Shown piece after piece: positions 61,049 to 61,259 of a stretch of 64,000 nt of DNA. The notes under the pieces are model-generated. The model saw only the letters and a list, made by a program, of their open reading frames with translations, ran no database searches and had not been told where the DNA came from. The translations under genes and the position numbers were made by a program. The stretch comes from Escherichia coli (lineage in GTDB: Bacteria > Pseudomonadota > Gammaproteobacteria > Enterobacterales > Enterobacteriaceae): NCBI RefSeq assembly GCF_003334405.1, contig NZ_QOWM01000001.1. The stretch is one strand, 5' to 3'. Numbering within the stretch: the stretch's first letter is position 1; each line of letters opens with the position of its first letter.

Positions 61049-61064
61049 TGCATAAAGGATGCCA
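61049..61064 (-). promoter_or_regulatory. candidate sigma54 (-24/-12) promoter of the hyf operon
   Basis: Minus-strand TGGCAT-ccttt-ATGCA vs consensus TGGCAC-N5-TTGCA, correct GG/GC spacing, about 41 nt upstream of hyfA ATG; operon encodes its own sigma54 activator HyfR. Confidence 0.6.
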
Positions 61065-61259
61065 TTCTGATTAACTCAATATATTCAATAAGTTATGTAT
61101 TAACTGGATTCTGAACGGTACAAAAATGATGGTCATTAACGTTCAGCAAAAAATGGATTCGACACCCGTGTCGCAGGGGAAAGCGAGAATGTGATCTTGA
61201 TCACGAGAAGTGAGGTATGCTGGCCGCAAGCGCAGCCAGCACGGAATGGAGCAAAGTAA

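Follow-up and report, generated by a model that had tools for sequence, protein, structure and literature searches.

Close described relatives of the region studied here are the promoters of the FhlA-dependent formate regulon of Escherichia coli, namely fdhF, hycA/hypA and hydN. Like hyf, they combine a -24/-12 promoter with an upstream dyad of the type TCGWCA-N4-TGWCGA, and the region between dyad and promoter is A/T-rich in all of them. In K-12, the dyads of these upstream regions read ACGTCAAAACTGACGA at fdhF, TCGTCACTAGTGTCGA at hydN and ATGTCGATGATGTCGA at hyc/hyp. The FhlA operator has been published as TGWC-RAWRAT-GWCA, and PMC7658346 (Table 2) gives a matrix of 13 sites based on Schlensog 1994 and Leonhartsberger 2000. 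That FhlA, HyfR and CRP regulate hyf is already recorded in papers and databases. Work by Skibinski in 2002 is said to have shown that hyf depends on sigma-54 and, by primer extension, that transcription starts 30 nt before hyfA; purified HyfR reportedly binds the hyf promoter region.

The hyf promoter differs from those of the formate regulon in having a single strong dyad, whose spacer (CGGG) is rich in G+C, an extra, ChIP-proven CRP site upstream, and its own operon-encoded paralogous activator, HyfR. Among hyf (formate hydrogenlyase-2) promoters, those of Citrobacter, Kosakonia, Atlantibacter, Providencia, Morganella, Dickeya and Pectobacterium share with it the dyad or dyads, an IHF-like element of the form AAC-N4-TTGAW, and a -24/-12 box that precedes hyfA by 38-83 nt. 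Linkage to bcp, the CRP-type site and a conserved block, TGACCATCAYTTTTGT, are found only in Escherichia, Citrobacter and Kosakonia, and the right half-site of the dyad reads TGCCGA in Citrobacter, Kosakonia and Atlantibacter as against TGTCGA in E. coli.

We analysed a 64-kb stretch of E. coli DNA, referred to as the window throughout, and conclude with considerable confidence that the segment in front of hyfA is the regulatory region of the hydrogenase-4 operon hyfABCDEFGHIJR-focB, comprising a sigma-54 promoter, a probable FhlA/HyfR dyad, an IHF-like element and a CRP site. On the minus strand, the genes run from bcp (61730..61260) through the spacer to hyfA (61007..60390), the first gene of the operon, and on to hyfB and its successors. 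A 501-bp query around the hyfA upstream region found matches in 5425 of 5426 complete E. coli genomes, where the annotated features are bcp and hyfA. The features on which the argument draws are listed from the upstream edge of the region to the activator gene.

61218-61241, minus strand: hairpin at the 3' end of bcp (inverted repeat I3), the upstream edge of the hyf regulatory region
61190-61205, no strand assigned: CRP site CGTGATCAAGATCACA, centred at about -159.5; it also fits the FNR-like GTGATcaagATCAC
61159-61174, no strand assigned (reads 61174..61159 on the minus strand): candidate FhlA/HyfR upstream activating sequence, dyad GCGACA-CGGG-TGTCGA, which is the originally predicted palindrome plus one base on each side
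61120-61135, minus strand: invariant block TGACCATCATTTTTGT, at about -82 to -97
61083-61095, plus strand: IHF-like element ATTCAATAAGTTA, at about -45 to -57, between dyad and promoter
61049-61064, minus strand: sigma-54 -24/-12 promoter hyfAp, TGGCATCCTTTATGCA, with GG at 61063-61062 and GC at 61051-61050
61038, minus strand: start of transcription predicted by the rule of Bonocora et al., about 31 nt ahead of the hyfA ATG
61013-61017, minus strand: Shine-Dalgarno sequence AGGAG, read from the sequence, 5 nt before the hyfA ATG (61007-61005)
60390-61007, minus strand: hyfA coding sequence, 205 aa, from the list of open reading frames (shorter start), the 618-nt RefSeq coding sequence of K-12 and the E. 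coli genome matches annotated hyfA
48299-50308, minus strand: hyfR, operon-encoded sigma-54 activator with GAFTGA, from homology to FhlA and the RefSeq annotation

The hyf locus is missing from about 21% of the complete E. coli genomes (1127 of 5425), ST131 being one example. In these genomes, homology to the window ends at 61211, just past the bcp hairpin, and resumes at 47396 beside yfgO, with about 40 bp of unrelated sequence in place of window positions 47397-61210. These break points place everything between the CRP site and the promoter in the same 13.8-kb unit as the operon, present or absent as a whole.

The promoter sequence TGGCATCCTTTATGCA has a single exact occurrence in the window (61064..61049, minus strand). 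Read as TGGCAT-CCTTT-ATGCA, it holds its GG and GC doublets 10 bp apart, the canonical spacing of TGGCAC-N5-TTGCW, and departs from this consensus at two positions, neither of them in the doublets; 41 nt lie between the end of the motif and the hyfA ATG at 61007. The original prediction had described exactly this arrangement, TGGCAT-N5-ATGCA with GG/GC spacing about 41 nt before hyfA and an AGGAG Shine-Dalgarno sequence, and every element was located as claimed. By sequence alone, the -24/-12 match is no better than chance: a scan of the window for TGGCACN5TTGCA with at most two mismatches returned 28 matches, with 29 expected. The sigma-54 matrix scan that had been suggested as a check did find the site, but ranked it only tenth in the window, with 12.1 of a possible 21.1 on the Barrios RpoN matrix of 186 promoters (printed in PMC7658346). 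We therefore judge hyfAp to be real because of its context, its conservation and published binding data, and not because of motif statistics.

As to context, the site lies between genes in the right orientation, and its distance from the ATG is conserved. Among published data, a sigma-54 ChIP-seq 17-mer, ATGGCATCCTTTATGCA, has been assigned to hyfA and marked as an EcoCyc promoter with experimental confirmation (Bonocora et al. 2015, Table 1, PMC4591121), and it is present in identical form in the window. The bcp>hyfA spacer is also among the strongest gSELEX peaks of the RpoN holoenzyme (92% with holoenzyme alone; Shimada et al. 2021, PMC8743547), and with NtrC added it gives the highest peak, used as the 100% reference (PMC8743547). 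The predicted sigma-54 promoter before hyfA is thus the same sequence as a published ChIP-seq site and RpoN gSELEX peak. For a comparison across species, we collected 45 loci of other species that encode HyfA relatives, 43 of which were usable, and scored the 400 nt upstream with the RpoN matrix. In 30 of the 43, the best score was at least 10 and lay 38-83 nt before the ATG; these loci include Citrobacter and Kosakonia as well as Providencia, Dickeya, Photobacterium and one Burkholderiaceae genome. Within E. coli, the five most divergent alleles sampled have 17 variable columns, none of which falls in the CRP site, the dyad, the block 61135..61120 or the -24/-12 box.

According to the rule of Bonocora et al., transcription starts 19 bp downstream of the motif centre, and these authors give a distance to hyfA of 31 (PMC4591121). 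A start at 61038 puts GG at -25/-24 and GC at -13/-12. A sigma-70 promoter scan of the bcp-hyfA spacer found none, and an Rfam scan of 60900-61400 with E-values up to 1 found no match. hyfAp is an already documented promoter of a well-studied operon, and nothing distinguishes it from the K-12 hyfAp: the spacer is identical to that of MG1655 at 252 of 252 bases, and the 17-mer and the distance to hyfA are the same.

Two further observations concern sequences of promoter type or position. A perfect 8-N7-8 inverted repeat, ATATGAAA/TTTCATAT (61026-61048), is centred on the predicted hyfA start and overlaps a direct repeat of ATGCAAT with 12-bp spacing; it occurs in all sampled E. coli alleles and is absent in Citrobacter and Kosakonia, and it was set aside. 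Far downstream, the 3' end of hyfR contains TGGCGCAGTTACTGCA (48471-48486, minus strand), which precedes the focB ATG (48274) by about 197 nt and whose RpoN-matrix score of 13.2 exceeds the 12.1 of the genuine hyfA promoter. The main text of PMC4591121 gives the hyfA promoter only, with no further hyf sigma-54 site.

The predicted transcription start also bears on where hyfA begins. An in-frame ATG at 61046 would extend the reading frame upstream, and it lies 8 nt upstream of 61038; at about -8, it would fall outside the sigma-54 transcript. In the spacer alignment, this ATG is absent from the Citrobacter and Kosakonia leaders, and CAAGGAGCC, the Shine-Dalgarno region of the shorter frame, is kept in both genera. 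RefSeq annotates the 205-aa protein, in agreement with the shorter start that had been favoured. In this reading, translation begins at the 205-aa ATG behind AGGAG, and the longer open reading frame starts upstream of the transcript.

Upstream of the promoter, a 14-bp palindrome had been reported about 100 bp away, and its centre indeed lies at -102 from the T of TGGC, or about -128.5 from the start site. Its position (61173-61160) was correct, but the 14-bp palindrome is imperfect: the sequence is CGACAC-GG-GTGTCG, with 6-bp arms and a non-symmetric centre. The family dyad to which it belongs spans 16 bp, TCGWCA-N4-TGWCGA, and recurs upstream of hyf promoters in many genera, for example as TCGTCATTAGTGTCGA in Morganella and Providencia, TCGTCATTTATGACGA in Sodalis and TCGACACAAATGCCGA in Atlantibacter. 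An alignment of seven syntenic bcp-hyfA spacers (E. coli, four Citrobacter and two Kosakonia) showed CGACAC and TG.CGA to be invariant in all seven sequences, from three genera, against a diverged background. Measured from the T of TGGC, the top dyad-matrix site of E. coli, Citrobacter, Kosakonia and Atlantibacter is at -100 to -102 in every case, and this fixed offset is the strongest single argument for the dyad as an activator site; in other genera, the offset ranges from -57 to -186.

How far such a dyad could arise by chance depends on the pattern used. YGWCRNNNNTGWCGA has one match in 64 kb, the palindrome itself, with 0.6 expected in the window and about 0.002 per 250-bp spacer; this pattern was written after the E. 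coli site had been seen, and a matrix trained independently, on other genera only, is the fairer test. With that matrix, the palindrome scores 11.0 and ranks fourth in the window, behind three sites that are all intragenic, and the maxima obtained in block shuffles of the window average 13.0. Together with the frequency of short 6-N2-6 repeats, these values would fit a chance inverted repeat with no function. We nevertheless find that reading scarcely credible, given that the palindrome is invariant in three genera while its flanks diverge, stands at the same offset in a fourth, contains none of the 17 variable columns of the divergent E. coli alleles, and is the sole family-dyad match in the window, in the right spacer.

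The alignment also separates a protein-binding site from an RNA structure. A terminator scan flags the palindrome exactly (5 pairs, a loop of 4, tail AATCCATTTT), and the sequence might on this basis be a terminator or back-up terminator of bcp, in which a hairpin CGACA-CGGG-UGUCG is followed by a U-run; the stronger bcp hairpin (61241..61218), which has an 11-bp stem in the minimum-free-energy fold of a segment with z = -4.2, is without a U-tract in E. coli. The stem of the palindrome is only 5 bp, however, and the T-run begins 5-6 nt past it. In Citrobacter, Kosakonia and Atlantibacter, the right arm is TGCCG, which breaks an A-U pair with no compensation, and the T-run is not conserved although the CGACAC and TG.CGA identities are. 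Base identities are thus kept where pairing is not, the pattern of a protein-binding site rather than of an RNA stem. The same genera carry a canonical hairpin and T-run directly after bcp, at the position equivalent to the 61241..61218 hairpin, and we regard termination at the palindrome as very improbable.

If the dyad binds a protein, FhlA and HyfR are the foremost candidates. The published FhlA matrix falls exactly in register with the dyad and agrees with it at all seven core positions (G2, W3, C4, T10, G11, W12 and C13), whereas the total is low, at 4.7 of a possible 17.5. The comparison with known FhlA sites that had been proposed therefore bore out the core but not the overall score, and the low total is attributable to position 1, where the dyad has C, and to the G+C-rich spacer, not to the core. 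HyfR and K-12 FhlA share 51% identity, with hardly any difference between their C-terminal helix-turn-helix segments, which leads us to expect that both would read the same dyad. Such shared recognition is consistent with the dual FhlA/HyfR control of hyf named in the title of Skibinski et al. 2002 (J Bacteriol 184:6642). The bcp-hyfA spacer contains one strong dyad, the next candidate, TGAACGTTAATGACCA at -73, scoring only 1.3, while at least two dyads are present in some other promoter regions (Sodalis, Dickeya) and several half-sites in those of K-12 hyc/hyp and hydN.

The low matrix total could also mean that the palindrome is bound by some other regulator and that the true activator site lies elsewhere, for instance in the block 61135..61120, the longest invariant run of the spacer. 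This is unlikely in our view: the dyad is common to the upstream regions of K-12 fdhF, hydN and hyc/hyp, it also occurs in the hyf promoters of genera that lack the block, and its offset from the promoter is fixed, while the block is confined to bcp-linked loci. Judged from the matrix core, the dyads shared with K-12 promoters, conservation, offset and the likeness of the helix-turn-helix segments, the upstream palindrome is very probably an FhlA/HyfR activator site, and its proposed role as an enhancer for these proteins gains support. A full-text literature search for the palindrome and for the block 61135..61120 retrieved no hyf-related paper. The variant CGACAC-N3-TGCCGA of Citrobacter, Kosakonia and Atlantibacter may represent a HyfR-preferred operator distinct from FhlA sites.

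Some additional dyad-like sequences were noted. The best score of the dyad matrix in the window, 16.8, belongs to TCGTCGGTAATGACGG (47989-48004) inside focB; 21 of 200 block shuffles reach this value, and the site is probably due to chance. Four loci (L007-L010, belonging to Atlantibacter and to one Citrobacter freundii record) have, about 100 nt upstream of TGGC, another perfect palindrome, AAATGCCGA-C-TCGGCATTT, that shares bases with the dyad TCGACACAAATGCCGA. This overlap suggests that the TGCCGA half-site is used in two geometries. Next to the E. coli palindrome, TGATCAAGATCACA scores 10.2 with the FhlA matrix, above the 4.7 of the dyad, and was rejected as an FhlA site: it is the ChIP-proven CRP site, and its conservation is of CRP type.

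The original prediction overlooked this CRP site, together with a conserved IHF-like element and a further conserved block. CGTGATCAAGATCACA agrees with TGTGA-N6-TCACA at 9 of 10 specified positions, and the same pattern is what is conserved in the seven-spacer alignment. The CRP ChIP-seq site for hyfA in ETEC H10407 is the identical 16-mer (PMC4287617), and gSELEX recovered hyfA as one of the known CRP targets (PMC3105977). An FNR study predicts an FNR site at the same sequence but lists no FNR ChIP peak for it (PMC3688515). Two Dam GATC sites lie within the CRP site (GTGATCAAGATCAC, 61191-61204). Elsewhere in the window, TTGATATATATCAA (33129-33142) is a perfect FNR consensus; its K-12 counterpart falls between pdeF(yfgF) and yfgG, some 130 bp before pdeF.

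The IHF-like element ATTCAATAAGTTA matches the IHF consensus WATCAANNNNTTR at 8 of 9 specified positions. Relative to TGGC, AA(C)-N4-WTGAW stands at a fixed -29/-30 or at -40 to -42 in 19 of 33 loci. The supplement of PMC3688515 notes IHF ChIP-chip and Fis signals upstream of hyfA, and the IHF signal covers this region without being resolved to ATTCAATAAGTTA.

No invariant run in the bcp-hyfA spacer is longer than the block TGACCATCATTTTTGT, which is identical in 7 of 7 aligned sequences except for one Y position. In the form TGACCATCAYTTTTGT (61135..61120), it occurs only in bcp-linked loci (L001-L006 and K-12), and the candidate second dyad TGAACGTTAATGACCA overlaps it. Several identities were tried and rejected. 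By eye, the block resembles a Fur site (about 14 of 19) or an IHF site (6 of 9), and the conservation pattern does not fit either; nor does it fit an FNR site (8 of 10), for which the window holds 48 matches with two mismatches. Published predictions place the FNR site for hyfA at the CRP site. An inverted repeat CTGAACG...CGTTCAG (61146-61111) was likewise dismissed, its right arm being missing in Citrobacter and Kosakonia. We tentatively suggest, as a possibility that we would not yet favour, that TGACCATCAYTTTTGT at about -90 is an undescribed cis-element of the bcp-linked hyf loci in Escherichia, Citrobacter and Kosakonia, either a second, non-canonical HyfR contact or the site of a further regulator. 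If so, it may contribute to the near-silence of E. coli hyf or to a preference of the promoter for HyfR over FhlA.

Taken with what is known of the sigma-54 family, these elements point to the following course of events. Sigma-54 RNA polymerase binds TGGCATCCTTTATGCA (61064..61049) as a closed complex that, as in other members of the family, should be unable to open DNA alone; an AAA+ enhancer-binding protein, either HyfR or its paralogue FhlA, would have to remodel it before transcription could start near 61038. Motif, position and conservation suggest that the activator sits on the dyad 61174..61159, centred at about -128, and that the IHF-like element at about -50 bends the DNA so that the activator can reach the promoter. 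The CRP site at about -160 is occupied in vivo according to published binding data, and the listing of hyfA as a CRP target suggests a cAMP input to hyf transcription. The hyf operon has been reported as poorly expressed natively, and this would mean a promoter that is mostly occupied but idle.

Measured against the regulation already described for hyf, the gain is modest: a base-level regulatory map from comparative data. The successive elements of this map are the CRP site, a single dyad of FhlA/HyfR type at constant offset, an unassigned invariant block, the IHF-like element and the -24/-12 box. It provides precise targets for mutagenesis and could help work on formate hydrogenlyase-2 or on hydrogen production that needs the normally silent hydrogenase-4 operon to be switched on.
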